From Dictyostelium discoideum (taxonomy: Eukaryota): 64,000 bases of DNA. The position numbers were made by a program, and so were the translations under genes. Below, in pieces: positions 36,315-57,640 of this stretch (position 1 is its first letter; each line of letters starts with the position of its first letter). The stretch covers positions 2,496,001 to 2,560,000 of the forward strand of contig CM000155.2 of the NCBI GenBank assembly GCA_000004695.1, in the 5' to 3' direction. The notes below the pieces were generated by a model that saw only the letters and a program-made list of their open reading frames with translations, had not been told where the DNA came from and did not search any database.

Positions 36315-37645
36315 GGTTGTTGTTTCCAATCCAAAAATTATCTGAATTTTTTTTTTAGAATTTTCTTATCATATACCGTCACAAATCTATTTTTAGGTTC
36401 ACTATGTTTAATATAATTTTAAATACAAATAAAAACTCCTTCAAATAGAAATATTTTATTCTAATTTTTATTTTTTAAAAAAATAAAAATAAAAATAAAA
36501 AAAAGGAAAAAAAAACATATACTAATCAAATATTATTCATCGATTTAACCAAATTATAAGAACACAAAAATATTATGTACGATTAATATATTGGAAATCA
36601 AAATAATTTTTTAAAAAATAGATAAATAAATAAATAATATAGAATATGACCTCTTATATCTATTCAATTAAAGGTATAAATTCACTGACAAATAGATATA
36701 TTTCAAATATCAGTAAAAAAAAAAAAAAAGATTTTAATCTTTTTTTAATAAAAAAAAAATAAATAATAAAAATAAAAAAAAATAATAATTATAAATTATA
36801 AATTTAGTAAGTTTTTTATAAACATTTTGAAAAAAAAAAAAAAATATTAATATTTTAATTTTCCTCTTTATTATTAAATTATAGAAATAGTATTTATTGA
36901 AAATTATTTTTTTTAAAATCATAGCTTTAAAATTATTAATATTGTCAATTTTAAAACAAGTGTAGTATAGCAAAAACCTCAATGAATTCTCAAATATACC
37001 ATAAACAGATAACGACTAATATGATCGCACCATTTTTTTTATCCTTTCATGATCAAAAGAGACACACCAAAAAAAAAAAAAAAAATTATAATAAAAATGA
37101 AATAATAAAAAAAAAAAAATTAAAAAAATTAAATAAAACTGTAAATTCAAATAAATCAATTAAAGAGCATCTAATTTGACAATCAATTTTAATAAAAAAA
37201 AAAAAAAAATGTACTATATTTATATAAATTCACTAATTATTTGTGTGGTTGAGTGTGGTTGAGTGTGGTTGAGTGTGGTGTATATGTGTTAAAATAATAA
37301 TGTACATAATAAATAATATTTTTTTGACTTTTATTTATTTTATTTTTTTTTTTTTTTTTTTATTTTAATTTTGATTAATTGCTCCTATTTTAATTTTTTT
37401 AATATTTATTTATTATTTTTTATTCATTATTTTATTTTTTAATTATTATTATTCTATGTTTTTTTTTATCTTTTATAATTTGTAATTCTCTCCAATTATT
37501 TAAAAAAAAAAAAAAAAATTAATATTTTATTTTTTAAATTATAAATATAAATAATAAAAACAATTAATTTAATCAATTTTCAATTAATATTTAAATTCAT
37601 TTTGTTTTTGTATTTTTTTTTTTTTATATTTCCTCACTCTTAAAT

Positions 37646-37686
<41 letters not shown>

Positions 37687-37689
<3 letters not shown>

Positions 37690-38321
37690 AGGATATCAAT
37701 TATTTTATTATCCTTATTATTTTTATCATTACACTCATTGATTAAAGCTGACATCACTAAATTGAGTGTTTGTGGTGTAAGTTACTATTTAATATTTTTT
37801 TATTATTATTAATTATTAATTATTAACTATTTATTATTTATTAATTATATTATAGTCAGCAAGAGCAGTACCAACAGCAACACAAAATCCAAAACCAACA
37901 TGTGTAAATGTTAATTCACAAGGTATACCAACAGCAGGTTTAAATTCAGCTGCATTTGATAATGGTGTAAGATGTGGTCAATGTTATGAATTGACAGGAC
38001 CATTGGGTAAAACTGTTGTAATGGTCGCTGATGTATGTGATGCTGGATCTGCATGCACACAATCTGATTTATTTAATTTCATCATTCCAAATGAAGAATT
38101 TGATAAAATTGGTAACCGTTCTGACTATGGTAATATATTTTCATTGTGTTATCAAATTGTATCCTGTGGTTATAGTGGTAATGTTCAAGGTGTTTTCACT
38201 GGTCCAAGTAGTTCACCAAATACTTTTACATATTTCCTCAGTGTTGTATTTTCAAATAATAATGTTGCAGTAAGTTAATTTATTTATCATTTATTATTTA
38301 TTATTATTTGTTATTAATTGT

Positions 38322-38369
<48 letters not shown>

Positions 38370-39326
38370 AAGATTAAAAAAGTTTTAATTAAAGGTCTTT
38401 CTTGGCCATTATATGAATCTTTGACAGGTCAAAATGGTAATTGGAAATGGAATAAAAATTCTTATGAATTACAATTCCCAGCAACTTTATATATTACTAG
38501 TAATACTGGTGAGACTATAACTTATAAAATGAATTCAAGACCAATTACTAATCAACCAATTGACCTTGATTTTCAATTTAATCCAAAAGCAATTTCAAGT
38601 TTAGAGAATAATGAATGTAGCATGGCATTATTACCACAGTATATTTATCAAGATGGTTTATCTTATGGTTGGGTCGATAGTCAATCTTTCAATTATGCAA
38701 AATTCACTGATAAATCAAGTGATACTAAAAGTGGTAGTGGAACATGTATCAATGCCCAATTGGATGGCCATGGTGGTGTTAAATTCACTAGAGAAGGTGA
38801 TTTCCAAACTTCATATTTAGATAAACTTAGCTTTGATATTAAAACCTCTGCTGATAGTAGTTCATTTGCAGTTTATTTTGGTGATGTTGCAACTAAAAAC
38901 ATTGACCCATTAGTAGCCTCAACTTGGACCACTGTTGAATTGAGTGTTAAATCTTTAACAAATAATACAGTTGAAGGTTCTATAACATTTTTCAATAATC
39001 AAGCTGATCCAATTAATATATGGTTAGATAATATTAAATGGACATACACAGATGATGCTCCTCTTGATCAACCAACAATGGATTTAATTGAAGTAAATAA
39101 TAAACCATCAACAACATCAGGTACTGGAACCACTTCAAGTAAACCTTCATCTAGTAGTGGTGGTGTTAGTGGTGGTGGTATTGGTAGTGAAAGTTCAATC
39201 TATGGATTAAGTTCTGAAAACCAAGAAAATCAAAGTGGACATCATGCTTCTTCAAATACAAATATTTTATTACCAACTACTTTTGTTTTCTTTATTTCAA
39301 TTACAATTTTATCATTACTTTTTTAA
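37687..39326 (+). CDS. Expansin-like protein (paralogue 1), 485 aa. Signal peptide, expansin DPBB domain, second beta-rich domain, S/G/T linker, C-terminal hydrophobic tail (GPI/TM-like). Exons: 37687..37776, 37856..38269, 38373..39326.
   Basis: Exon 1 MRISIILLSLLFLSLHSLIKADITKLSVCG + GTAAGT. Exon 2 ...NGVRCGQCYELTGPLGKTVVMVADVCDAGSACTQSDLFNFIIPNEEFDKIG..., the expansin DPBB cysteine pattern. Exon 3 ...WKWNKNSYELQFPATLYITSNTGE...GGVKFTREGDFQTSYL... ending in TTFVFFISITILSLLF. Confidence 0.75.
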
Positions 39327-39538
39327 AATTATTATTATCATTATTATTATTCGAAAAATAAAAAAAAAAATAAAAAAAAAATAAAAAAAAAAATATCTTT
39401 TTCGTTCGTTTTTTTTTTTTTTTTTTCATTTTTTATTTTTTTTTTTTTTTTTTTTATATTATTTTTTTATTTCCTCTCTTTACCAAAATTTTGTACATAT
39501 AAAAAAAAAAAAAAAGAAAAAAAAGAAAGAAAAGAAAA

Positions 39539-41077
39539 ATGAATTTACAATTTTCAATACCAGGATTTGTTAGTCGTAGATATATTAATGAAACCAAAGG
39601 TAGAGGATTATTTGCAGAGAAATCATTTGAAAAAGGTGAATTAATTTTCTCGGAAAGACCACTATTTTCAGTTCAACATGTTTATAATAGAGCAACAGCA
39701 TGGACATGTGGTAATTGTTTTAAATTTTTAGGATCATTAAATAAACAAATGTTACATTATAGAAAAGTATTTGGAATTAAAGAGGCATCAGAATTACCAG
39801 AGTTTGAAAATCTTTTCAATTTTCATACCAAAGTTTATAGTTGTTTTGCAAAATGTGGTGAAAAATATTGTTCAGAAGAGTGTAGAAATGTTGCATTCTA
39901 TAGTCATCATCAAATTCTTTGTGTTGGTGAACAAACTCCAGATTCGAATCCAATGTATCAATTTAAAAAACATTCAATTGAAACAAATGAATTATTTTTA
40001 TTAGCTGCTCAAGCAATCGCTTGTTTAATTTGTAGAATTGCAAATGACCCATCTTCTGATCAACCAACTCAAATTAAAATTCCATTAACTACAAATAATA
40101 ATAATAATAATAATAATAATACAACTACTACAACAACTACTACAACAACTACTACAACAACTACAACTACAACTACAGGTAATTCATCACAGGATACAAT
40201 TATACAGGCACCATTGGTTGAAAGAATTTGTAATGAATTCTTTTCAGAATATCAACATAGAGAATGGTGGGATGTTAGAATTGATGGTAATTTCACATTG
40301 GAGGAAGCAAAAGTGTGGTCAAATGAATCATTGGAATTATTGAGAAAAGCATTGATACCATTACTTCAAAATAATCCAAAAACTAATAATCAAGTATTTA
40401 TTGGCACTGTTTTATCAATGGAATTCTATTCACATTTACTTGGTCTTTTAGAGATGAATGATAATTCAATTGGTTTCTTTAATCCATTGGAATTATTTAG
40501 AAGAGATATCAATGCCATTGGTAAAGGTCCTTTCACAACACCACCAATTCAAAAGAATTTAAAAGATCGTTCAAATGCTGTTTTAGCTTCAACCGTTGAT
40601 GCTTTCCGTCAATATCATAATGAACAAGATGATCAATGTGATCAAGAAGATTGTAATGATCATGAACATTCTCATGGTGATTCAATGGATGATGATGATC
40701 ATCATGGTCATGGTCATTCTCATGGTCATGGTCATGGTGGTTCTCATGGTCATGGTGGTTCTCATGATGATCATGCAATGGAAGATAATCAAGAGGAGGA
40801 AGAGGATGATGTAGTTGAAGAGGTTTTCCCATCTTTTGATGGTTTTGGTATTTTTGGTCTTCAAGCAATGGTTAATCATTCTTGTGAACCAAATATTACT
40901 GTAGTTTTTGAAAACCATGATAATCGTGCTCACATTAAAGCAACTCGTAGAATTGAAGCTGGTGAAGAATTATTCCATACATATATTGAAGAAACAAATC
41001 CATATGATGTTCGTCAAGAAGATTTAATTACTTATGGTTTAAAATGGGAATGTGGTAAATGTTTAGAAAAAATTTAA
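39539..41077 (+). CDS. SET-domain protein with an interrupting Cys-rich (MYND-like) zinc-finger segment (SMYD-like split SET) and a His/Gly-rich insertion. 512 aa, single exon.
   Basis: N-SET (INETKGRGLFAEKSFEKGELIFSERPL). Cys-rich segment (WTCGNCFKF...CFAKCGEKYCSEECRNVAF...HQILC). C-terminal SET core ...MVNHSCEPNITVVFENHD...ATRRIEAGEELFHTY. Insert HEHSHGDSMDDDDHHGHGHSHGHGHGGSHGHGGSHDDH plus poly-N/poly-T. Confidence 0.75.
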   Translation: MNLQFSIPGFVSRRYINETKGRGLFAEKSFEKGELIFSERPLFSVQHVYNRATAWTCGNCFKFLGSLNKQMLHYRKVFGIKEASELPEFENLFNFHTKVYSCFAKCGEKYCSEECRNVAFYSHHQILCVGEQTPDSNPMYQFKKHSIETNELFLLAAQAIACLICRIANDPSSDQPTQIKIPLTTNNNNNNNNNTTTTTTTTTTTTTTTTTTTGNSSQDTIIQAPLVERICNEFFSEYQHREWWDVRIDGNFTLEEAKVWSNESLELLRKALIPLLQNNPKTNNQVFIGTVLSMEFYSHLLGLLEMNDNSIGFFNPLELFRRDINAIGKGPFTTPPIQKNLKDRSNAVLASTVDAFRQYHNEQDDQCDQEDCNDHEHSHGDSMDDDDHHGHGHSHGHGHGGSHGHGGSHDDHAMEDNQEEEEDDVVEEVFPSFDGFGIFGLQAMVNHSCEPNITVVFENHDNRAHIKATRRIEAGEELFHTYIEETNPYDVRQEDLITYGLKWECGKCLEKI

Positions 41078-41712
41078 CCAAATAATAATAAAGAAAAATG
41101 GAATGAATAAAAAAAAAAATAAAAAAAAAAAAATAAAATAAAAAAAAAAGAATAAATAGAATAAAGTTTTTAAATTATTATAAATTAAATTATTTAATTT
41201 ATGATAAAATATAAAAAATAAAAAAAGTAGTGGTTTATTATTTTATTCAATTTCAATAAATATATATATATATATAAAATATTTAACGAGTAACCCCCTA
41301 TTTTTTTTTATTTTTACTTAATTTTATAATTTATTTAAATATTTTAAACCAAAAAAAATTAATAAAATACAAAACCCACACACAAACACACAAAATCAAA
41401 TTATAAATTTTCCATGATTTACAAATATATAAATATGGAGTGGGTTAAAAGAAAATTTGTAATTATATTTTTACTTTAATTTAGTTTTTTAAAACTACCT
41501 TCATAATATTTTATTTGTATAATAGAGTTTATTTTCCTTTTTTCAACCTAAGTTTTATTTTATTTTTCCCCTTTATCTTGATCTTTATTTTATTTTTTTA
41601 AAATGGGGTGATATTTTAAAAATTGTGGGTAATTTGATTTTAATATTCCCTAATTGTTGTTTATTTGATTATTTTAGTATATAGAATTTTTAAAGTATCT
41701 ATTATTATTGTG

Positions 41713-41756
<44 letters not shown>

Positions 41757-42128
41757 ACAGTTTTTGAATTTAATAATGGTATAATATGGTTAAATTTATT
41801 TTGATTTTAATTAATCTAACATCACAAATAATTTTTTTATTTATTTTTATTTAATTATTTAATTTTTAATTTTTACAAACTATTGTCTTTTTTTTTTTTA
41901 AAAATAATTATTTATTTAGTATTTTGGTTTTTTTTTTTTTTTCCTTTTTTTTTTATATTTTTTATTTTTTTTTTTTTTTTACTTCAATAAGTTATATATT
42001 ATTTATTTATTTATTACATCATCCTTTTAAAATTTCACACTATTTATTTATTTTTTAAAAAATATACAATAAAAAAAAAAAAAGATAATTAAAATAAATA
42101 AAAAAAAAAAAAAAGTATAACAATAAAA

Positions 42129-43938
42129 ATGAAAATTAATAAAAACAATTATTTTAAAATAATAATATTTATAATATATGTAATAATAAATTTAATAAAT
42201 GCATCTGATAATGTAAAATTAAGTAATTGTGGAGTGAGTATATATTTTTTATTTTATTATTATTATTATTTTTATTTTTTTTTTTTTTTTTATTTTTTAT
42301 ATATTTATTTTAATTTTTTTTTTTTTTTTTTTTTTTTCTTTTTTTAAAAATATTTTAAAAAGCAAGCAAGAGCTGAACCAACATTTAAACAATCAGAAAA
42401 TGGTGGACAATGTCAATTACCACCACCATCAATAGGAACAGCAGCATTATCATTATCAGCATTTAATGGTGGTGCAAGATGTGGTCAATGTTATGAATTG
42501 ACAGGACCGTTGGGTAAAACTGTGGTAATGGTTACTGATGGTTGTAATTCTGGTGAAGCATGTACACAAAAGGATTTATTTAATTTTATAATTTCAAATA
42601 AAGATTTTGATAAAATTGGTAACTCTTCATCTTATGTAAATATTTATTCATTAGGTTATCAAGAAGTATCTTGTGGATTTCTTGGTAATATTAAAATTAA
42701 ATTTGGTGGTTCATTAGGTCACAATGGTAAAGTTGACTATTCATATTATTTCACTGTTTCATTTTCAAATTTTAATATTGGTGTAAGTAATTTTAAAAAT
42801 AATTAATAATTAATAATTATATTTAATTATAATTTTATTAATATTTAATAAAAAGATTAAACAAGTTCAAATTTTAGGTACTGGTATGGTATCTTATATG
42901 AAATTGAAAAGAAGTTTAGGTGGATTTACATGGAATCAAGAGAGTGGTGGATCAAAATTACAATTTCCTGCCACATTGGTATTGACAGGTGTTGACGGTC
43001 AAATTATATCATATAAATTTAGACAACCTCCTGCAAATATTGCAATTGATATGAAGAAACAGTTTATACCACAGGTTGGATTATTATCATCGAAATTCAA
43101 TCAATCGGAAATTTGTGGAATGGGTAATGTACCAGAATATATCTATGAAGATTCATTGACATTTGGTTGGATAGTATCAAATAGTTGGAGATTCAATGTA
43201 TTCAATCTTTCATCACAAGACACCGACGATAATCCAACACTTGGTGAGAGTGTAATTAAGATGGATTTGGCTGCAAATGGGGGTTTGGCATTCACCAGAG
43301 AAGGTGGGTTTCAAACAAAGTACTTGGAATCGTTGAAAGTGATGATCAAAGTGTTACCACCAACAAATAGTCTACAATGTTTTTTCGGTGCTTCTGGTAT
43401 CTACGTTATCCCCGGGCCATTGGGCGGAGATTGGCAAGAGATCTCAATCCCGATATCAGTTTTGAAACCACAAAAAGTTGAATACTCATTATCATTCTAC
43501 AATAACCAAGGCCAATCGATAACAATGTGGATTGATAATATTAAATGGATTTTTTCACCAGAGGCCCCACCAACACCTCTAATAATAACTGATCCTACTG
43601 TAACCCCACCACCACTACCCCAATCGATTGTAACTGCTGCTGCTGGTGTTGTAGGTTTAAATTCAATTGGTATTACTTCAAATAAAGGTGGTGTGGCTAA
43701 TTTAGTTGATGGTAGTAGTAATGATGATGATGGTACTGGTGGTACTGGTGGCGGTGCTTCAAATAAAGTTGGTAAAAGAGTTGATGGTGAAGATGGCGAT
43801 AATTTCATGGGTGGTAATAATGCTTTCTCTTACTATAATGATGATAATTCTTCAAATATTTTATTATTCTCTTTTAATATTACTTTAACATTTTTATTAT
43901 TATCTTTAATTATTAATATTTTATTATTGTTATTTTAA
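42129..43938 (+). CDS. Expansin-like protein (paralogue 2), 535 aa, same three-exon architecture and C-terminal hydrophobic tail. Exons: 42129..42233, 42363..42782, 42856..43938.
   Basis: Exon 1 MKINKNNYFKIIIFIIYVIINLINASDNVKLSNCG + GTGAGT. Exon 2 ...ARCGQCYELTGPLGKTVVMVTDGCNSGEACTQKDLFNFIISNKDFDKIGNSSSYVNIYSLGYQEVSCGF...FSNFNIG + GTAAGT. Exon 3 IKQVQILGTG...WNQESGGSKLQFPATLVLTGVDGQ...FTREGGFQTKYL... then PTPL/Gly-rich linker and LLLSLIINILLLLF tail. Confidence 0.75.
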
Positions 43939-44154
43939 AAAAAAATAAAATAAAATAAAATAAATAAAAAAAAAATCTTGGGATTATCTTTTCTTTTTTT
44001 TTCATTTTTTTTTTTTCATTTTTAATTTTTTTTATTTTTTTTAAAATTTTGATCAATTGCCTAACCCAAAATGTCTTTTTTTTTTCAAATAACCATTTTT
44101 ATTTTTAATTTTTTTTTAAAAAAAATAAAATTTTATATTTTTTTTTTTTTTTTT

Positions 44155-44199
<45 letters not shown>

Positions 44200-44483
44200 C
44201 ATTGATTGTGTATTAAAAAATTTTTTTTTTTTTTTTTTTTTTAATTTCTTATCTATTTATTTAATCTTTAATTTTATTGTAAATAATTAATAAAGAAAAA
44301 AAAAAATAACTCTTAAAAAAAAAAAAAAAAATTTTTATTTACAATTTTTTTTTTTATGATATAAAATAAATATATAGAAAAATAAAATTTTTAAAAAAAT
44401 TAAAAAAAAAATAAAAATAAATAAAAATAAAAAAAAAAGGTGTTAAAAAAAAAAAAAAAAAAAAAAAAAATCATTCAAACACA

Positions 44484-45285
44484 ATGGAGCAAGAAGATCA
44501 ACAATACGAGGAAGATTCTTCTCAATTCAATAAAAATAATTATGTACCAGACGATAATAGTGGTGAAAAAGAACAACCAGCAACGACCACAGAAATAACA
44601 ACAACAACGACAACAACAACACCAACAGCAATAGATAATAATGATTCAGATTTAACAGAAGATGTAATAAATGCAGTATCAAAATATAAAGATGGTACAA
44701 GTAGTAAGTCTGTCAAAAAGACAAGAAGAAAGTTTGCAATGAATATCGCAACTGATGAAGTATTTAATTTACCGCCAATGGAACAACAACAACAACAACA
44801 ACATCTACAACCACCTCTTTCACCAAATAGTGCAAGTAATACAAATTTTGGAGCAGCTGCAACTTTTAGTCCAACTTCTATACTCTCAAAAAATAATAAA
44901 ATAATCACTTCCCAACAAACATCATCTACTTCAATATCACCACTTAAACCATCACCACTTTCATTCTCTTCAGGAATTTTACCTCCAAGTTCTAGAATTT
45001 ATGAATCACCACCAACCTTGGGGAAATATGTAAGTTAAAATATTATTTTAAATAAAAAAAAAAAGTTTTAAAACGCTAATATCTTTTTTTTTTTTTTTTT
45101 TAAAAAAAAAATAAAAACAATATTTAGCCATTATTACATCATTTAGGACAAAGTTATCTTGGTAATACTTTCTCAGCAGTACCTCCAGAATCAAGTGAAT
45201 ATTTTTCCAATTAAATTAATTGATAGAGAAAGAATAAACTTAATTCATCAAAATATTCTTTCAGTAAGTGATTAGTTTTTTTAAA

Positions 45286-45334
<49 letters not shown>

Positions 45335-45355
45335 ATTATTATTATTTATTATTAA

Positions 45356-45442
<87 letters not shown>

Positions 45443-48382
45443 AATTATCAAAAAATACTAATTTTTTTTTTTTTTTTATGAAAGAATGAATTTCAATTAT
45501 TAAAATCATTAAAACACAGTGGTATTGTTAATTATATTGGAATGATAAATGATAATACAGGATTTGGTATTGTACAAGAATTTTATGAGAATGGATCATT
45601 AAGTGATATTTATAATAGATCAGGAGCATTCCAAGAATCATTAGTAGCAAAATATACATTACAAATATTGGAAGCATTAGGATACATTCATTCACAAGGT
45701 ATCGTTCATAGGAATTTAAAATCAAATAATGTATTATTGGCAAAAGGTGGTAAAGTAAAGATATCAGACTTTGCAATCGGTATTAGATCTAGTGCAATCG
45801 AACCATCCATTAGATTCTCATTGAATGGTTATCCATTTTGGACATCACCAGAGGTGCTCTCGATGAAACCATTCAATCATAAAGTAGATAGTTGGAGTAT
45901 TGGTTGTTTGATAATGGAGTTGATTGTTGGTCATCCTCCATTCTCACATTTAGGTCCAATGGAAGCATTGATTGAAATTATTAATCCATCAACAACTATA
46001 CTACCAAATTGTTTAGATGAGAATGAACAATCATTATTCTCTTTAGAGTTAAATCAATTTTTAGAATTATGTTTTAAAAAGGAACCATCCGATAGAGCTT
46101 CAGTACATGATTTACTTAGACATCCTTGGTTATCAATGTTTAATGATAGTTCATCATCATCATCATCATCTTCATCGCAAGCTCATCCAACAGTTCAATC
46201 AAATAATCTTAATGGTAATGTAAATTCTAGAACTCATGGTGAATTTTATTCTTTAGATTTCTTATCACAATTTGAACAAAATGAAAAAGAAATTTCAAAA
46301 ATTTTATCATCTGGTGATCAATTAGATTCAACTTCAAATCAAATTGATTTAAAGAAATTCCAATTTAAACATTATAATAAGAAACAACAACAACAATACA
46401 ACTATAATTATAATAATTACAACAACAACAACAACAACAATAACAATACTAATGATAATGATAATGAATGTGGTGAACAAACTGAGGAAATTAATTTATC
46501 AAGCTTATCAAAAGATGAACAAATTGAAAGATTAAAAGCAATAATTGATCAAAATGAAACAATGGCAAATAATTTAAAGTATACAATGCAAGAGGTATTA
46601 CAAGAACAAACTAAATATTATGAAATTTGTGAATCAATGAAAAGTAAAACTTTAGAGATTTTAAATCAAAATAAAACTGGTGCAAGAATTTCTGCACATA
46701 GTAATTCATTATTAAAGAGAACCAATCAAATGGCAAATGATTTGGGTAGAAAATATGAAATTCTTCAATCCAATATTAAAAGATTAGAGGATTATTTAAT
46801 TACAAAAGATGATTGTGCAAAGAAATTGGCAAATGTAGTTTACAGAAATAAAATTTCATTCGATTCCCTATTGAATCCAACTTTGGCTGCTAATTTACTC
46901 TACCAAATTGGTTCAAAAACTTGGAAAAAAGGTCAAGAGAAACGTGCTTTTGCAACTCTAAAAGATAATTTCTTATTTTTCTTTAAAAATGAAAAATCCT
47001 CTTATCCAATCGATGTAATATATTTAAATGATAAGAGGAATATTTCAATAACTTCAATTCAAGACTCTAAAAAGAAAGCATATATAATTTGTATTGGTAC
47101 AACAATTCATGATCAAAATAATTTAGATCCTTCAAATAATAACGAATCTGTGAATTTATCAACTTCACCAGGTTCACTTGTAAATAGTAATAGTAACCCC
47201 TCAATTTCAAATTCTCTTAATAATAATAATAATAATAATAATAACAATAATAATAATAATAATGGAAACCCAAATGTAATAATAACAACAAATAATAATT
47301 GTAATAGTAATAGTAATGGAAATAATATAGCGACACCTCCAATTTCAATACCGAATGGTAAAGAAGTTAAAGAAGGTAAAGAAATTAAAGAAATTAAAGA
47401 ACCAAAAGAAAAAGATAAAGATAAAGAAAAAGATAAAGATAAAGAAAAAGATAAAGATAAAGAAAAAGATAAAGATAAAGAAAAAGAAAAAGATAAAGAC
47501 AAGGAAAATAATAATAATAATAACAGTAATAATAATAACAATAATGGTAATAATTATAATAGTTCAGAAACAATTTGGTGTTTATTAGCATTTGACAATT
47601 CAAAGAATATGGAGAATTGGTATGGAGTTTTAGATAGTGTAGTTCCTTGGTATGATAAAAGAGCTTATGAAATTTCAAAACCAATGTTACCAATTGAAAA
47701 TAAAAAACATCAAAAACAAAAATCATTAGATTCAACCAATAAACAATCACCAGGAAGTTTAGGTGGTGCTGGCGGTGATGTTTCTTGGAAGAAAGAAAGT
47801 GGTGGTATTAAATTTCAAGGTGTCGTTGGTGTTAGATTGGATGATTTAATGACTCGTGAAAGTCCAACAGCTGAATTACCCTATTTCCTATCGAAGATGT
47901 TGAAATTCTTAGAAAAGAATGTCGATGAAGAAGGTATTCTTAGATTATCAGGTTCTTCAACTGAAATCCTTGAAATGAAACAACAACTTCAAAGAGGTGA
48001 ATCAATCGATTACACCTATAAAGATCCTCATGCCGTTACTGGTCTATTGAAATTGTTTTTACGTGAATTACCAGAATCAATCTTACCCGAACATTTACGT
48101 ATTCAAAGTACAGAGATCCTTTCAAATGGTCGTTTTGGTGAAAAAGAAAAAATTAAAGAAATTCAAACACTCTTAAGTAATCTTAGTAGACCTCATTACA
48201 ATGTCTTAAAACATATGTTATTTTTCGCTAAATTGGTCGTTGATAGAAGTGAATATAACAAAATGGTTATTGCAAATGTAACAACTTGTTTCTCTCCAAC
48301 TTTACGTATTCCTCCTGGATTATTTAACTTTTTAATTAATACTTATGATTTATCTTTTCCAAAATTCAATTTATCAGTTTAA
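44484..48382 (+). CDS. Pseudokinase-RhoGAP fusion protein, about 1187 aa. Exons: 44484..45029, 45147..45263, 45485..48382. S/T/Q-rich N-terminus, STE-like kinase fold with degenerate catalytic motifs, coiled-coil/poly-N/(KEKD)n region, C-terminal RhoGAP domain.
   Basis: Kinase C-lobe VQEFYENGSL...IVHRNLKSNNVLL...KISDFAIG...WTSPEV...DSWSIGCL, i.e. HRN instead of HRD, DFA instead of DFG, SPE instead of APE. N-lobe (exon 2 plus start of exon 3) VNIFPIKLIDRE...NEFQLLKSLKHSGIVNY lacks a GxGxxG loop. RhoGAP: GVVGVRLDDL...EGILRLSGS (arginine finger)...VTGLLKLFLRELPESILP...NVLKHMLFFAKLV...MVIANVTTCFSPTL. Phase-0 junctions at GTAAGT (45030) / tttAG (45145-45146) and GTAAGT (45264) / aaAG (45483-45484). 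The second intron carries (ATT)n. Confidence 0.7.
47380..47515 (+). repeat. Coding 18-bp/9-bp periodic repeat (aaagataaagataaagaaaaag)n giving a (KEKDKD)n tract inside the pseudokinase-RhoGAP gene
   Basis: KEKDKDKEKDKDKEKDKDKEKDKDKEKEKDKDKE read in frame. The antisense strand produces the spurious ORFs 47113..47541 and 47394..47750. Confidence 0.85.
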
Positions 48383-48545
48383 AAAAAAAAAAAAAAATTA
48401 AATAAATAAAATAATAATAAATAAATAAAAAAATAATAATAAAGATAATAATAATAATAAAATTGATCTAGTTTAATACTAAAAAAAAAATAAAAAAAAT
48501 AAAAATAATTTATTGTAATATAACTTTTTTTTTTAATTTTTTTTT

Positions 48546-49333
48546 TTAAATAAATTTATCAGTAACAAAAGCAGGAGTTGGAGGACAATCTGGAGTGAAA
48601 TTCCATTTAATATTATCGATCCATAAAGTATTGGTTTGATTTTTATTATTATAAAAAGATAATGAATATTCAATATCATTTTTTGATTTTATTTTTGAAG
48701 CAGGGATTGTAATTTCAGTCCATTGCCAACCTAATGTTGGTAAAGTGTAAGAACCAACTTGTCCCACATAAACCTGTAAAGCACTAATTGGTGGGGCTGC
48801 TCTAATAGTAAAACTTAATGATTTTATATACTTTGTTTGAAAACCACCCTCTCTGGTGAAATGTAAACCTCCATATCCTTTTAATTCAACTTGAATTAAT
48901 TTTTTACCCATTGATGCTTTTTTATTGGTTTCGTGAGATTCCAAATTAATATAATCAAATTTCCAACTGAAATAGGTCACCCATCCAAGTCCTAGGGATT
49001 CTTGATAAACATAATCTGGTAATTTACCCATCTCACATTTCTTTTCAGATTCTCTTAAAACCAATGCACTACTTGACTTTTGTGTTGGTGGTGCAAATTG
49101 TTTCTTAATATCAATCATTTGGCCTGATGGTGGTTTATTAAATTTATATGATAGGGTTTGACCATCAATACCTGTCAAAATTAATGTTGCTGGAAATTGT
49201 AATTTTGCTCCGCCACCTTCTTGATTCCATGTATATTTTCCCAAATCTCTTTTTAATGTACTAATTCTTGACATTCCTGTTCCCATCAACTGAACTTGTT
49301 TAATCTTAAAATTAAATATATATTAATTTATTA

Positions 49334-49364
<31 letters not shown>

Positions 49365-49854
49365 GATTTTATAATATTGTTTCATTTACTTACACCAATA
49401 TTAAAATTTGAAAAACTAACATGAAAATAATAAGAGTAGTCAGGTCTTCCAGCAATGGAACCACCCCCAAAAACCGCTTTTATATATCCACTAAATCCAC
49501 AAGACACTTTTTGATAACCCAAAGAATAAATATTGCCATATGCACTTGAATTACCAATTTTATTAAAATCTTTTTTTGAAATGATAAAATTGAATAGTTC
49601 TTTTTGTTGGCATGCATCACCAGCATCACATCCATCTGTTATCATAACAACTGTGCTTCCTAGTGGGCCTGTTAATTCATAACATTCCCCACATCTTGAA
49701 CCTTTATCAAATGCAAAAACATTCAATGCTGCTGTTCCAATAACTCCTGGTAACGGTAAACCACATTGACCACCATCTGTTGAACTTTCACCATTTGGAA
49801 CACATCTAGCTTTCTAATAATAATAATTATTATAATTATAATAATAACAATATA

Positions 49855-49937
<83 letters not shown>

Positions 49938-50079
49938 TAATAAAAATGATTTAGTTATTTTTTTTTATGCATTCTTTTTTTCTTTTACTTACTCCACATT
50001 CACTAATTTTTATATTTGTCGAATTTATAGTTTTAAATGTAGATAGAATTAATAGAATTATTAACTTTAAAGTTCTCAT
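48546..50079 (-). CDS. Expansin-like protein (paralogue 3), 421 aa. Same exon structure but it ends immediately after the second domain, with no S/G linker and no hydrophobic tail. Exons (minus): 49993..50079, 49394..49813, 48546..49304.
   Basis: Exon 1 MRTLKLIILLILSTFKTINSTNIKISECG + GTAAGT. Exon 2 ...SRCGECYELTGPLGSTVVMITDGCDAGDACQQKELFNFIISKKDFNKIGNSSAYGNIYSLGYQKVSCGF...FSNFNIG + GTAAGT (420 nt, same as paralogue 2). Exon 3 IKQVQLMGTG...WNQEGGGAKLQFPATLILTGIDGQ...FTREGGFQTKYI...TPDCPPTPAFVTDKFI-stop. First intron contains an (ATT)n block. Confidence 0.75.
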
Positions 50080-50934
50080 TTTATCCTATTTTTAATTTAT
50101 TTTTAATGCATAAAGGATTCTTATTTTAGAATTTAAAATTTTAAATTCTTTTATTTTCTATTTATACTAAATTTATGATTATTATTTTCTATTTTTTTTT
50201 AATTTTTATTATTTTATTATATATATTTTTTTTAGTGAAATTTAATATATTTAATCATGAGTTAATAGATATATAAAACCAACATCACACCCAGACCCCC
50301 CCCCCCCTTTATAAATCCATTATTAAACCACTCACAACCACATTATTTTATTTTAAATTATTATTTATTTTTTTGTATTTTAAAAATTAAAAATAACAAT
50401 CACCCACCAAAATAAAATTTCCTTTTTTATTTAATATTAATATATAAATAGGGTAATGATTGAAAGAATATTAATAATCTTTATTAATAATAAAAAATGA
50501 TATTTTTAAAAAAGATTTGTAAAACATCAAATAATTGAATTGTTATTCTAATAGTAGATTTTTAAACCAAGAATAATAGTAAAATGAATAATAAATTTGT
50601 GATGATAAATGTGATGACGAAATTTTATCTTTTTTTAATCCTTTCATCTCTTTAGCTCTCTTTTATTTTTAAATTATTTTTTACAAAGTAAATATTAAAT
50701 GAATAAATGGGAAACAACAATAAAAATATAAAAATAGTAATTACATAATTTCAATTAATTTATAATAAATAAAACATATTAATATATTCATAATAATAAA
50801 AATGATATAAAATAAAAAACCCCATTATTTTTTAATACAAAAACAAAGTCAATTTATTTTATATATGTATATATATATTTTTTTATAAAAAAAAAAAAAT
50901 AAAGTTGTATTAATATTTTTATTTTTATATGAGA

Positions 50935-53900
50935 TCAAATATGACTATTTTGATTTGGTCTTAGTAATGAAGGTTGTTGTTGAAATTTAAAAGATCCTTG
51001 ATATATATTTGTACCAACTGGATTATAATTATTATTATTACTATTATTATTATTATTATAATTATTATAATTATTATTATTATTATTATAATTATTATAA
51101 TTATTATTATTATAATTATTATAATTATTATTATTATTATTATTATTATTTGGATTTAAAAGTTCTTTTTTATATTCTTCAATTGCAGCTTTAATTTCTT
51201 CTTCAGTTAATTTACCATATTCATCACCAGTGAAATAAGCATAAACATCTTTGATACCAATGATAGCTTGTTTATTTTCTCTAATGACTTTATTGAAAAT
51301 TGGATCAGTACCATGTTCCAACTCACGATTAATTGAAACGACATCATAAGGAATATCAACCAATTCACCGATTTTGAGTCTAATATCTTCTTCGACATTT
51401 TTAGGAGTTTCAGAATCGACAGCTCTCTTTGAGAGAGTTTGTTTATAGATCATTTGAGTATAAGTTTTTTGTTCACCAGTACCAGCCATAACAAGGGTAT
51501 AAACGTGAACTTGATTCTTTTGACCCATTCTATAACATCTATAAACGGCTTGTCTATCGTGAACTGGATTCCAACTTAGATCCATAAGTATGACTCTAGT
51601 ACCACCGGTTAAATTTGTACCTAAACTACCAGCTTTAGTTGAAATTAAAAACAATTTAATATCATTAGCCATATCATTGAATTGATCGATAAGTCTTTGT
51701 CTAGTTTTAGTTGGAGTTGAACCATCCAATCTAAAATAATCTCTACCAGCTTTCCAACCCAACTTTTTTTGAATGAAATATTCCAATTGATTAAGTGTTG
51801 AAATTGAGAAACTAAATGTAACCACTCTTTCATTATTTTGATTGAAATGTTTGAGCATACTAAAGAATAATACAAATTTATTACTTCTTTCAACTATACC
51901 TCTTCTATAACCAATTTGATTGAAATAAGTTGAAAACACTGATGGTTGTAACAGATCGGATGCTTTAATCTCATTTAAATGAATAACACGTTGAATTAAT
52001 TCATTTTTATAGATGATATCAGCTGTTGGTACATCATTTGCCTTTAGAATAGATTTTAATTCTGAAATCGATTTCTTTTCCAAATCTTTTGTTACCAATG
52101 GTTTCTTTTCTAGTAAACCATCTGGATGATTACAAACCACTGTTAAAACTTCATATTGCGCGAAATGATCATTGAAATTACTATTTTGTATTGAAATTTC
52201 CAAGAGTTTACTTTGTATATCGGTTCTTTTCACTAGAATCATCTTTTCAGATTTAGAAACTTGCATTTCTCTATCTAAAACCTCTGGTCCTAATCTTTGT
52301 ACGAAATCTTTAATCAATGATTGTAATGCTGCTAATCTACCTCTCATCAGCTTGATATCTCTTTCATTTGATTCACTCTTTGTACCTGCTGCTATTGGTT
52401 TAACGAATCTGTCTTTAAATTCTTTTTCATTACCTAAATGAAGTGGACGAATGTAATCAATCATAGTATAATACTCCATGAGATTATTTTGTAATGGGTA
52501 ACCAGTTAACAATACTTTTCTATGGGTTTTAATTAGATTGGCAGCATCTGAGATTTTAGTTTTAGTGGATTTCAAACGATGACCTTCATCTACAATTAAG
52601 AAATCAGTTTCTAATATCTTTGCAATCGATGGATGTCTCTCTTTGATATGTCTATTGATTGTGGATGAGAATGATTCAAAAGTCATTGCTAATACACCCC
52701 CACCACTGAACCAATTATCAAATGTTGGAAAACGTCTAACCAAATCCTTATGACGTGGTGCAAACACTCTGATGTTGGTGCTCTTTTCTGATTTTGGTAA
52801 CCATTTCTTAAATTCTTTCTCCCAATTGTATAAAGTATTGGCAGGTACAATCAAGAGATACTTTGTACCCTTATGATATCTATTGTGAGTGTGTAAGAAT
52901 GCTATCACTTGTAATGATTTACCCAAACCCATTGAATGTGCTAAAATGCAACCTTTACCTTTGAAAACCATATTGTCCCAAAGAAATTGTACACCAGAAT
53001 GTTGATGAGGCTTTAAGAAACATCCAATCTCTGGATCCAATAGAATATCTTCACCTTTACCATTAGCACTTTTATTACCTGGGAAAATGAATAATTTATC
53101 TCTTGCCACACCTTCTGAACTTCTAGCTGCTCTCATTTCTTCGATTTGTTTATTCTCAATCTCTTCTTCTTTTCTAACTCTAAGTGTTTGTCTATTTACA
53201 TTATTAACGCTTTGAACTTCCATTTTTTTAGTTTGTAATCTTGTTTTTGATATTGGTGGTGATGTTGATGACGATGACGATGATGAGGACGACCTTAATG
53301 ATGATAGAGTGGTTTGTTTTAATGGTGGTGTAGTTTTATTGCTGCTTCTGGTGTTAATAACGCTCATTTCAATATCTGAAGATTCTGAACTAAGTTCATC
53401 ATCACTTTCACTACTTGAAATGGTGATTTCACCTTCACCACTTTCACTACCACTACCACTAATACTTTCACTTGAATCTGAATATTTTATAAATTGTTCC
53501 AATTCACTATCTTCTTCACTTTCACTCTCACTCTCAATAATATTCTTTGGGGTTGTTGAAGATCTTCTAGCTCTTATAGTTCCACCAATACTTCTTCTTC
53601 TCCTTTTTCTTCTTGTTGCTGCTGCTGTTGTTGTTGTTGTTGTTGTTGTCTTTGGTTTTTGTGGTTTATAACTATCAGAGGTTGAACTATCCAAATCATC
53701 ATCCATTTCACCTTCACCATCACTACCATCACTAATTACAATTCTTGCTCCATTTGATGAATCTATAATACTCAAATCGTCACTATCATCCGATAAATCG
53801 ATTGTTAAACTTGCTTTTCTCAATCTTCTATTATTATATACCTTTGTTTTTGTTAATCCCTCCAATTTTGAATCTAAATCTTGTGCACGATGTGCTTTTA

Positions 53901-55833
53901 TTTTTAACTCTTCCTCTTCCTCCTCCTCTTCATCTTCATCGGTTGTAGTGGTACTAACAATTTTTCTTTTTTTATCATTTGTGTCCCCCTCTTCATCATC
54001 ATCATCATCATCATCATCACCATCACCATCTCCTCCCCACATATTATAATCGTCATCATCATCATTATTATTTCTACTAGTTTGTGGTGGAAATTTTGGT
54101 TCACCTGGTTTCTTTCTTTTCTTTTGTGATGGATTCGATGGGTTCCAAAGGTCTTCTAAATCTAATTTCGAAGTTACTGGAGTAGTAGTAGTTGTTGTTG
54201 TGGTGGTAGTGGTTGATTTTTGTTTTTCACTTTCACTTTCACTTTCATTTTCACTATCATTTTCATTTTCACCTTTATTTTCATGAAGTGAGGATTGTTG
54301 AGATAATAAATTATCTTCATTCCAATCATCAGGACTATCGTCATCGTCATCATCAGTTTCTTGTTGAACAACAATTAATTTTGATTTTTGTGCACTTGAT
54401 GATTGTTGTTGTTGTTGTTGTTGTTGCTGTTGTTGCTGTTGTTGCTGTTTAATTTGTGATGGTGATTCTACATATTCTGGTGGAGGTTTTTGGCTGTGTA
54501 ACATATCGACAATCCATTCCTCTTTCCAAAAATCTTCAAAAGTTTGACTTATCGCTTTATAAACTTTTGGTGAAAATTCATATTGAAAGTCATTAAATAA
54601 TTTACATTTTCTAGCGTTATATTCAAAATATCTCTTTTCTCTAATCTTTATAACTTCCATATTTTTTCTAGACAAATTCCATAATGGTAAAGCCATCTTT
54701 TTCAAACTATCTATATTCTTTTCAAACCACTCTCTCTTTCTCTCTGCGATATAGTCTTCAATAACTTCTAAATCTACGATTTTATTTGACTGTAATTGTA
54801 ATTGTGATAAAGGATTTGATTGTTGTAAAAATTGTGAAACAAGTCCACCACCACCACCACCCCTATTCTGATCACTTTTATTTTTATTTTGTTCATAATA
54901 CATTAAATCCTCTTCTTTCTCCCTCTTTCTTTGTTCTCTACTCTTTAAATTCTCTAGATCTCTTTGTTCTTGAGTTTTACTTGATCTATTTACTTTTCCA
55001 TCTGTATCCATTTTATCTTCATTTTCATTTTCATCATCATCCTCTTTTTCTTTATCTTTTTCTATCTTTTCTTTTTCTAACTTTTCTTTTAGTGATTTTT
55101 CTTTTTCCAACTTTTCTTTAAGTAATTTTTCTAGTCTCTCTTTTTCTAATCTTTCTTTTTCTAATCTTTCTTTTTCTAATCTTTCTCTTTCTACTCTTTC
55201 TTTTTCTAAGCTTTCTTTTTCCAATCTTTCTTTTTCCAACTGTTCTCTTAGTGATTTTTCTTTTTCTAGTCTCTCTTTTTCCAGTCTCTCTTTTTCTTGT
55301 CTCTCTTTTTCTAGTCTCTCTTTTTCTACTCTTTCTTTTTCTAGTCTCTCTTTTTCTAATCTTTCTTTTTCTAATCTTTCTTTTTCTAATCTTTCTAATC
55401 TTTCTTTTTCTAATCTTTCTTTTTCTAATCTTTCTTTTTCTAATCTTTCTTTTTCTAATCTCTCTTTTTCTAATCTTTCTTTTTCTAATTTCTCTTTTTC
55501 TAATCTTTCTTTTTCTAATCTTTCTAATCTTTCTTTTTCTAATCTTTCTTTTTCTAATCTTTCTTTTTCCAATTTTTCTAATTTTTCTTTTTCTAATTTT
55601 TCTTTTTCTAATTTTTCTTTTTCTAATTTTTCTTTTTCCAACTTTTCTTTTTCTAATCTTTCTAATCTTTCTTTTTCTAATCTTTCCTTTTCTAATTTTT
55701 CCTTTTCTAATTTCTTTTTTTCTTTGTTTTTTTCTTTATCACTTTTATATACATTTGGTGCTTTTTCTTCTTCAATTTTTAATAATCTGTTATTTTCATC
55801 ATTTTTTGGTTTGATATCAAATTGTTTGGTTGT

Positions 55834-55864
<31 letters not shown>

Positions 55865-57640
55865 TTTGAAATAGTTTCTTTTTTATTTGATTTCTTTCCT
55901 TTTCCATCTCTTTCATTGTCGGTTGAGGTTGATCTAGATCTTGTCATTGGCATTGATCCACTTTCACTACCACTAAAGCTACAACTTCTACTTCTACTTT
56001 CAATAGTTGAAGTACTACCTGTACTTCTACTCCTGTTCAATGACGGACTATGATCTCTACTTTCTCTACTACTGCTGCTACTACTGCTGCTACTACTAGA
56101 ACGACTTCTACTACGACTTCTTTGTGTTATTTTACCTTTACCTTTACTTTTACTACTACTTTTGTTTGTTTCATCTACACTACTATCTGATTCCATATCA
56201 ACATCCTCTCTATCAACTATGGAAGGATTTTTAAATTTATTATTTTTATTTTTATTATTATCATCATCAATATTATCTTTTTCAAATCCACTACCTCTCA
56301 CCATAGTTAATCTCTTTTTTTGTGGTGTGTGTACTAAATCTGTAAGTTTTAATTCGTCAACACCACTACCGCTACCACTACCATCTTTTTCATCATCATC
56401 TGTTTGCGATTTAGTACTTGTGATATCTTCAATACGATCTTCATACTCTAAACTAAAATCATTATCATCGTCATCATCTTCATAATTATTATTGTTATTA
56501 TTATTAGTATTAGTATTATTATTATTATTTAATGCATTTGAAATATCATTATCAGAATTACCATCATCTTTGCTAACATCTAAAAAATTAATATTATGAT
56601 GCATTGTATCTTCGGAATAAGATTGCATATGAGAATTTCTCCTATTATTATCTTCAAGGGATGTCTCTAACAATGTTCCCAAACTATTTTTAAATTCACT
56701 ACCAGTATGTGATGCTGAAAATGCATTTTTAACTGCAACTTGAAATGCTTCTGATTGTAAAAAATCTTCGATAAACTTTCTTTGATCATTACCATCATTT
56801 TTATTATTATTGTTATTATTATTATTGTTATTATTATTATTTTCAGAAACTGGTGTATTATGAATCTTTTTATTATCGCTTTCTAATATTATTATAAAAT
56901 ATATACATAAATTTATTAGTTATTAGAGATATATATATACATAATTTATTAAATAAAATTTAAAAATTACCTTTAAATTGTTTAATTGATCTTTTAATAT
57001 CAATGATATCACCAATTTTAAAACTCATCATATTTAAATGCTCATCAGTTAATAAAATGAATTGATCCCATTGTGTAATTTTTTGATCTTCTAATACTGG
57101 TTGATATTGTAATAGATCCAATCTTGTCAATAAATCTTTAATATTATTATCAATAACTTTGGGTCTTTGTATTGGTGTTGATACAGGTTGAATTGCTCTA
57201 TTTTCATTATTTTGTTTATTTACACTTTTAATTAATATATTATTTTTTGGTTTTGGTAATGTCGTTAAATTTGTAGGTGTTGTAGGTGTTGTAGGTGTTG
57301 TAGGTGTTGCCGTTGTCGTCGTCGTTCCTTTAGATTTTGGTGTTGTTGTTGTTGTTGTTGTTGTCGTTGTTGTGTTTGTAGGTGTTATTGGCGTTGTTGG
57401 TGTTGTTGTATGCGTTGGAGTGGATGGTAGTTGAACAATACTATGCTTCTTTGTAATCACACCACCCGTCGATTTACTCTTTTTAAATAGATTGGCAGAA
57501 TTTGATTTATCAATATTACTATTGTTATTATTTATACCATCGCTGTTGTTGTTATTGTTGTTATTGTTGTTGTTGTTCTTGTTATTTTTCTTATTGTTTG
57601 TGTTGTTATCATTATCATTTATTTTATTATTTGTGCTCAT
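50935..57640 (-). CDS. SNF2-family DNA-dependent ATPase (ATRX / RAD54L2-ARIP4-like helicase core), about 2200 aa. Two exons (minus): 56971..57640 and 50935..56882. N-terminal T/P-rich region, SAM-like domain, a long ([10 protein letters not shown])n charged repeat and poly-Q.
   Basis: Helicase motifs [19 protein letters not shown] (I), [11 protein letters not shown] (II), [15 protein letters not shown] (III), ...[40 protein letters not shown] (V-VI). Upstream exon begins with ATG 57638-57640 ([10 protein letters not shown]...) and ends ...[28 protein letters not shown] (SAM-like) + GTAATT. Acceptor attAG at 56883-56885 gives phase-1 continuation ...[19 protein letters not shown]... into the 1915-codon ORF. 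Confidence 0.85.
55080..55730 (-). repeat. Coding 15-bp tandem repeat (about 40 units) encoding ([10 protein letters not shown])n within the SNF2 gene
   Basis: Plus strand reads ttctttttctaatct repeated. Protein reads [17 protein letters not shown].... The antisense strand generates the spurious poly-LFLIF ORF 55251..55814. Confidence 0.9.

Follow-up and report, generated by a model that had tools for sequence, protein, structure and literature searches.

Three clustered expansin-like paralogues of Dictyostelium discoideum with a CBM8-like third domain and altered groove residues

Expansins of the microbial EXLX1 type, with solved representatives from Bacillus subtilis (3D30/2BH0), Clavibacter (4JCW), Talaromyces (7WVR) and Streptomyces (9MS5), share a two-domain fold in which domain D1 is packed against domain D2. 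In Dictyostelium discoideum, an expansin-like family, expL1–9, was described by Darley 2003 and Ogasawara 2009, as cited in PMC4408306 (Kawata et al. 2015). Three members of the annotated family, expl8 (37687–39326, + strand), expl9 (42129–43938, +) and DDB_G0293186 (48546–50079, −), lie within 12.4 kb of each other in the stretch of D. discoideum DNA analyzed here, 64,000 nucleotides of contig CM000155.2 (positions 2,496,001 to 2,560,000; hereafter the window), and were studied with respect to their domain composition, conserved residues and history. Like other expL proteins, those of the trio are predicted to be secreted, are developmentally regulated and belong to an organism with cellulose walls. 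By contrast, expl6 and three unnamed D. discoideum members, recovered by a search with P0128, are two-domain proteins of 238–334 amino acids without a third domain, score on Pfam DPBB_1 and keep the motifs TxY, HFD and YNYW, whereas the trio falls below the Pfam thresholds and has lost the groove Thr and Asp. Identity of the trio to the microbial EXLX1 proteins is only 17–21%; relative to these, Ile takes the place of the groove Asp (D82 in B. subtilis, D78 in Clavibacter), the Thr is lost, a C-terminal carbohydrate-binding module (CBM) is added and, in expl8 and expl9, a stalk and a hydrophobic tail are extra.

Fusion of an expansin module to an additional carbohydrate-binding module, the principle followed by the trio, is known from swollenin (CBM1-expansin) and from bacterial GH5, CBM2 and CBM32 fusions, and a survey of the fusion partners of microbial expansins contained only CBM1, CBM2, CBM32 and GH5, with no amoebozoan and no CBM8-type fusion (bioRxiv 10.1101/637728). 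In the D. discoideum cellulase CelA, the partner of the CBM8 module (DdCBM8; PDB 7T7Y/7T7Z; PMC9079177) is a GH9 cellulase and no expansin. Since only two D. discoideum proteins, which are not named, are counted in CAZy family CBM8 (PMC9079177), the expL proteins are probably not among the members of that family. Plant EXLA, EXLB and the Asp-less EXPA clades VIII/IX represent an independent lineage, without a CBM8-like module and without a tail of the type that signals attachment of glycosylphosphatidylinositol (GPI). For the three genes of the window, the reading that we hold to be probable, with good though incomplete confidence, is that they are annotated genes derived from two duplications in group-4 dictyostelids, and that their products mainly bind or tether cellulose rather than loosen it.

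Domain architecture and binding-face residues

Taken singly, the three sequences scored below every Pfam cut-off (DPBB_1, 16 bits; EXPB1_D1, 15 bits; Expansin_C, 14 bits), and single-sequence searches of Pfam and PDB gave sub-threshold matches only, so that profiles were needed. Among 1.84 billion representatives, a profile built from eight relatives recovered 395 proteins (E ≤ 1e-3), many of them spanning all ~400 profile positions; its named matches came from Dictyostelia and Entamoeba histolytica. A 52-sequence profile compared with PDB sequences matched the solved expansins 7wvr (1.7e-37), 2bh0 (3.8e-22) and 2hcz (1.7e-20) and, over positions ~250–390, 7t7y (3.6e-10 and 1.9e-8) together with CBM4, CBM30 and CBM11 modules. 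The AlphaFold2 model of DDB_G0293186 obtained with the 52-sequence alignment reached a pLDDT of 89.7 and a pTM of 0.87; an earlier model from an 8-sequence alignment (pLDDT 48) was discarded. All three proteins have hydrophobic N-termini with Kyte-Doolittle maxima of 2.5–3.1, on which the prediction of a signal peptide and of secretion is based. The modelled architecture thus comprises a predicted signal peptide, an expansin D1 (double-psi beta-barrel, GH45-like) and D2 (CBM63-type beta-sandwich), which conform to the two-domain expansin fold, and then a third beta-sandwich. By fold and by detectable sequence relation, this third domain is closest to the CBM8 module of CelA. Within approximate bounds it occupies residues ~254–395 of expl8 (38628–39053, +), as placed by alignment to the third domain of DDB_G0293186 and by the profile match to 7t7y, residues ~266–412 of expl9 (43126–43566, +), placed by the same profile match, and residues ~263–407 of DDB_G0293186 (48591–49025, −).

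Residues of the groove and the binding face were mapped by aligning the trio and the solved expansins to the family profile with hmmalign, and from the columns of the family alignment. By both procedures, the Asp of the HFD motif (D82 of BsEXLX1; D78 of the Clavibacter protein, whose D78N mutant is PDB 4js7) is replaced by Ile in the three proteins, within the motif FNFII, and the His by Asn. The codons concerned are those of Ile106 in expl8 (38081–38083, +), Ile111 in expl9 (42588–42590, +) and Ile106 in DDB_G0293186 (49583–49585, −). The Thr of the TxY motif is also lost, being Val, Glu and Val in the sequences ARAVP, ARAEP and ARCVP (here and below, values in threes follow the order expl8, expl9, DDB_G0293186). 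In active expansins, this Thr hydrogen-bonds to the HFD Asp. A hydrophobic residue stands at the Asp position in every aligned dictyostelid member of the three-domain subfamily, whereas more distant relatives keep HFD, among them a three-domain protein of Entamoeba, which retains the Thr too. In D2, the WW pair (W125 and W126 of BsEXLX1) aligns to YF, YY and YY.

The consequences of losing this Asp have been studied elsewhere. Substitutions D82N/A abolish the creep activity of BsEXLX1 (PMC5072189), D136N abolishes the in vivo function of EXPA7 in Arabidopsis (bioRxiv 10.64898/2026.04.01.715922), and complementation fails with EXLA, EXLB and the Asp-less clades of EXPA (bioRxiv 10.64898/2026.04.01.715922; PMC3628503). 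Since the Thr and the HFD Asp, required for creep in BsEXLX1 and for the function of EXPA7, are missing from the D1 groove of the trio, binding rather than loosening would be the expected activity of these proteins. The earlier note on this DNA had presented them as factors that loosen the cell wall or extracellular matrix, an assignment made doubtful by the Asp to Ile change in all three. A standard loosening mechanism that tolerates the changed motif would be compatible with the clear two-domain expansin fold, with the D2 aromatic pair being retained as Tyr/Phe, and with the reports that overexpression of ExpL3 or ExpL7 alters morphogenesis and that ExpL3 binds Avicel (PMC4408306). Against it stand the absence of both groove partners in all three proteins, the inactivity of the BsEXLX1 and EXPA7 mutants and of the Asp-less plant proteins, and the fixation of the loss throughout the aligned dictyostelid subfamily while expl6 and three other D. 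discoideum proteins keep HFD. As judged from these residues, it is unlikely that the trio would be canonical wall looseners.

The C-termini bear on where the proteins would act. expl8 ends in an uncharged hydrophobic tail formed by its last 20 residues (39264–39323, +) and expl9 in a hydrophobic tail of about 26 residues (43858–43935, +); the last 20 amino acids are uncharged, have Kyte-Doolittle values of 2.35 and 2.43, respectively, and are preceded by ...SSN. In both proteins the linker before the tail is rich in Ser, Thr, Gly, Pro, Asn and Asp, and the tail is probably a GPI-attachment signal. Linker and tail are absent from DDB_G0293186 and from its D. purpureum orthologue. As the sequence of DDB_G0293186 ends directly behind its third domain, secretion of this protein in free form is probable.

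Several observations weigh against the preferred reading, in which the trio would bind or tether cellulose. An Asp equivalent to D71 of BsEXLX1 is conserved in the three proteins, which also speaks for a loosening activity, and a Stigmatella expansin is described with Leu at the D82 position (PMC5072189); loss of the Asp would not by itself prove that all wall-modifying activity has gone. On the binding side, Y157 of BsEXLX1 corresponds in the hmmalign alignment to Asn, Leu and Leu, with aromatic residues 3–5 positions away. The ligand residues of DdCBM8, W572, W574, Y600 and Q686 (PMC9079177), are partially conserved in the profile alignment, as F/W/Y/Y in DDB_G0293186, N/W/N/Y in expl9 and Q/F/H/F in expl8. 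The GPI reading of the tails was judged from hydropathy alone. To these are added the lack of expl9 from a published proteome and two features of the tree, which are given below with the data concerned.

Some matches obtained in these searches extend beyond the trio. The third-domain profile also matched repeated modules in the unrelated long proteins P0170, P0147, P0118, P0122 and P0081, which carry CBM_11, CBM30 or CBM_4_9, beta-helix plus fn3, or tyrosinase domains, indicating that the CBM8-like module is mobile well beyond expansins. AT-rich proteins of 660–1100 amino acids with an expansin-like N-terminus (P0089, P0094, P0133, P0080, P0101, P0125) recur on many short metagenome contigs, in clusters with 37, 16 and 11 members drawn from ENA, Logan and JGI. 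The possibility that AT-rich matches from the representative search corresponded to expl1–7 was rejected, all 10 of those looked up being unnamed metagenomic proteins.

Gene models, expression and duplication history

Three three-exon genes in the order +,+,−, as the earlier note had read from the letters, were borne out by spliced models. expl8 consists of exons 37687–37776, 37856–38269 and 38373–39326, with introns 37777–37855 and 38270–38372, and encodes 485 amino acids; expl9 of exons 42129–42233, 42363–42782 and 42856–43938, with introns 42234–42362 and 42783–42855 (535 amino acids); and DDB_G0293186, on the opposite strand, of exons 50079–49993, 49813–49394 and 49304–48546, with introns 49992–49814 and 49393–49305 (421 amino acids). 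Each model is an exact, full-length match to an annotated protein of D. discoideum AX4, so that the trio was already known: expl8 to EAL60943.1/XP_629339.1 (Q54C80, EXPL8_DICDI, 'Expansin-like protein 8', DDB_G0293182), expl9 to EAL60926.1/XP_629341.1 (Q54C78, EXPL9_DICDI, 'Expansin-like protein 9') and the third gene to EAL60945.1/XP_629343.1 (Q54C76, 'Expansin-like protein DDB_G0293186'). DDB_G0293186 is not named in the main text of any of the literature searched. Table S2 in Additional file 1 of PMC4408306 gives the same dictyBase ID, DDB_G0288331, for both expL7 and expL8; for expL8 this is probably a typo, since the supplement of PMC12821622 gives DDB_G0293182, which is consistent with the IDs of the neighbouring genes.

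The common exon plan proposed for the trio also stood. A signal-peptide exon ends in ...CG in the three genes, exon 2 measures 414, 420 and 420 nt, and exon 3 starts with IKKV, IKQV and IKQV. All introns are GT..AG, in phase 0, 73–179 nt long and 93–96% A+T, and interrupt the genes at two homologous codon positions, one following ...CG and the other following FSN(N/F)N(V/I)(A/G). The donor of intron 2 is GTAAGT in every gene, and that of intron 1 is GTAAGT, GTGAGT and GTAAGT. Three details required correction. Exon 2 ends in FSNNNVA, FSNFNIG and FSNFNIG, and the trailing V/A in the proposed FSNxNxG(V/A) is a read-through of the GT donor. Exon 2 does encode the double-psi beta-barrel domain D1, as had been stated, though not that domain only, for it includes the first strands of D2. 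Finally, among the long motifs said to be common to the trio, each protein contains LQFPATL; RCGQCYELTGPLGKTVVMV occurs unaltered in expl8 and expl9, the DDB_G0293186 version being RCGECYELTGPLGSTVVMI, and FTREGGFQTKY occurs in expl9 and DDB_G0293186, the expl8 version being FTREGDFQTSY.

Whole-protein identity is 41.6% between expl8 and expl9, 43.3% between expl8 and DDB_G0293186, and 57.5% between expl9 and DDB_G0293186. For the exon 2 product these values are 54, 54 and 70%, far from the 25% below which the earlier note would have given up homology. With DDB_G0293186 as the query, phmmer returned the other two proteins with E-values of 1e-154 and 1e-93, far beyond chance. A tblastn search of the three proteins against the whole window found these three loci only and no further copy, whole or partial. 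The genes are thus real and intact paralogues, homologous to one another, of the expansin-like type and members of the annotated D. discoideum expL family.

Reading frames and splice sites are intact in the three genes. The ratio of non-synonymous to synonymous divergence (dN/dS) relative to a second D. discoideum strain is 0.08 for DDB_G0293186, 0.06 for expl9 and 0.12 for expl8 (the latter from a partial sequence), and all three genes are under purifying selection. According to published RNA-seq, expL8 RNA is present at 8–20 h and prespore-enriched, and expL9 RNA peaks at 16 h and is prestalk-enriched (PMC4408306 Table S2). In the 2026 life-cycle proteome (PMC12821622 S1), ExpL8 was detected at culmination and in the fruiting body, and DDB_G0293186 in both replicates of the fruiting body and at no other stage. 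PMC9117722 is without data on these three genes. Transcripts of expl8 and expl9 and the proteins ExpL8 and DDB_G0293186 have thus been seen, which leaves no room for the case, foreseen in the earlier note, of a single transcribed copy, and the data agree with its suggestion that the copies may serve different developmental stages. That one or two copies would be decaying pseudogenes or unexpressed duplicates might be argued from the missing gene name and main-text mention of DDB_G0293186, and from the proteome cited above, in which expl9 protein was not detected. This is very improbable in view of the intact frames and splice sites, the low dN/dS between strains, the orthologues of the trio kept in D. 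purpureum, D. firmibasis and D. citrinum, the peak of expl9 RNA, and the presence of DDB_G0293186 protein in both fruiting-body replicates.

The age of the copies was assessed from divergence, introns and synteny. dS between copies is 0.9–1.05, which is saturated, and dN is 0.35–0.59. Introns aligned across copies showed no consistent similarity; two of six pairs exceeded composition-preserving shuffles (z about 5), and their interpretation as retained homology was rejected, the scores being put down to AT-rich, low-complexity A/T runs. The D. purpureum locus contains a copy A (+) with the same three-exon, phase-0 plan, an orthologue of expl9 (+), the kinase-RhoGAP gene (+) that in the window separates expl9 from DDB_G0293186, and an orthologue of DDB_G0293186 (−). 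Given saturated dS, introns without consistent similarity and the same +,+,− trio in D. purpureum, both splits are older than the divergence of D. discoideum and D. purpureum, and the expansion is ancient and not recent. A recent, strain-specific duplication or an assembly artefact could be suspected from some other assemblies, whose locus tags and accessions have gaps in their numbering from expl9 to the third gene. The structural difference that these gaps might imply was rejected as an artefact of numbering, the locus there having the same five-gene order. Since that order is repeated in a second D. discoideum assembly, the arrangement is common to D. purpureum, and the copies are only 42–58% identical with saturated dS, the probability of a recent origin or artefact is negligible.

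Relationships were inferred from a neighbour-joining tree (462 columns, 500 bootstraps). All group-4 copies, from D. discoideum, D. purpureum and D. firmibasis, are united by 100% bootstrap in a single clade, which excludes the sequences of P. violaceum, T. lacteum, C. fasciculata and A. subglobosum. Support is 97% for the grouping of DDB_G0293186 with its orthologue from D. purpureum and 82% for the union of the expl9 and DDB_G0293186 clades. The two features of the tree referred to above are that expl8 and D. purpureum copy A are weakly supported as a group (42% bootstrap) and that expl1–7 were not included. In P. violaceum, a SET gene (L003 7384–8772) orthologous to that of the window lies directly upstream of a single expansin-like gene, the only copy within 10 kb on each side, suggesting a single ancestral gene at this locus. 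The first two expansin-like copies of D. purpureum (L001, GL870969.1, 7250–8859) have no SET gene between them, at the position occupied by one in the window (39539–41077). Adjacency of SET and expansin-like genes therefore looks ancestral, and lost or moved in D. purpureum. P0032, a gene-model fusion of expansin-like, Ank and SET parts, was not used in support of this synteny, being of a compact Ank-SET type that is not clearly the split SET of the window.

Most likely, as the simplest history, two duplications would have occurred within the stem lineage of Dictyostelium (group 4): a first split would have separated expl8 from the ancestor of expl9 and DDB_G0293186, and a second expl9 from DDB_G0293186, leaving the latter inverted beyond the kinase-RhoGAP gene. 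The earlier note's view of a local family expansion by duplication with inversion is in keeping with the 100% group-4 clade, the inverted third copy and the D. purpureum synteny. In C. fasciculata (P0034/P0038) and A. subglobosum (P0035/P0037), paired three-domain genes have consecutive accessions or locus tags and fall in two tree clades. This would point to a tandem pair of greater age in other groups of dictyostelids, with one of its two lineages lacking an obvious group-4 member.

Neighbouring genes and upstream regions

As had been noticed, the copies are interleaved with unrelated genes. Between expl8 and expl9 lies a SET-domain gene (39539–41077, +; 512 amino acids; Pfam SET, 1.2e-14) unrelated to the expansin-like genes. 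Its Pfam SET match spans residues 21–482, indicating that the domain is split by long low-complexity inserts, which include an Asn/Thr run and a His/Gly/Asp-rich stretch (HGHGHSHGHGHGGSHGHGGSH). Between expl9 and DDB_G0293186 lies a gene of at least two exons (44484–48382, +) encoding a protein-kinase-like and a RhoGAP domain (Pfam Pkinase, 2e-43; RhoGAP, 5e-31), with a (TAT)51 repeat (45286–45439) within an intron; a (TAA)44 repeat (49815–49947) is found within intron 1 of DDB_G0293186. The next gene downstream (50935–56682, −) encodes a SNF2-family helicase of 1915 amino acids (SNF2-rel_dom, 7e-44; Helicase_C, 3e-19) that contains tracts of poly-Asn, poly-Gln and poly-Thr as well as a long, coiled (EKERL)n region of low complexity. 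tRNA genes are absent from the window.

Each of the three upstream regions, of 12–15% GC, contains one conspicuous G/T-rich or C/A-rich island. That of expl8 (37239–37287, +) is G/T-rich, consists of 3.7 units of GTGTGGTTGA and lies 400–448 bp upstream of the ATG in a region of 12% GC. A CA-rich island (AACCCACACACAAACACACAAA; 41370–41395, +) is located 734–759 bp upstream of the expl9 ATG, and a G-rich one (G12-TCTGGGTGTGATGTTGG; 50274–50320, −) 195–241 bp upstream of that of DDB_G0293186. The islands resemble the G-box or CA-rich elements bound by GBF in post-aggregative Dictyostelium promoters.

Implications for Dictyostelium wall biology

The three proteins would be mainly cellulose or beta-glucan binding components of the late-development matrix, that is, of the stalk tube, spore coat and sheath. 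Of the three, expl8 and expl9 would hold wall polymer at the surface of the cell, with DDB_G0293186 being free. The published expression divides the copies, assigning expl8 to prespore cells and to the stages from culmination to fruiting body, expl9 to prestalk cells at ~16 h, and DDB_G0293186 to the fruiting body. A broader proposal, which we advance only tentatively and regard as possible rather than probable, is that the trio belongs to an undescribed amoebozoan 'expansin plus CBM8-like' class present in Dictyostelia and Entamoeba, with many members bearing a hydrophobic tail, whose groove would have been disabled early in Dictyostelia by the change of Asp to a hydrophobic residue and the loss of Thr, and then conserved, to give surface-tethered, cellulose-binding adaptors that by function would not be expansins.

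The genes as such, the name of their family and their expression by stage are public knowledge. Neither the CBM8-like third domain nor the fixed loss of groove residues appears to have been remarked on so far, to judge from the fusion survey and from the counts in the DdCBM8 paper; they are modest additions, visible to any domain or structure database. The clustering of the three genes as such matters little, and it is these side results that could guide work on Dictyostelium wall biology. As the trio lacks the creep residues and adds a CBM8-like module, redundancy with expl1–7 should not be assumed in knock-out studies. Moreover, two members with a probable GPI signal and one without it would provide a natural anchored/secreted pair with which to approach the linkage between cellulose and the cell surface in stalk and spore formation.

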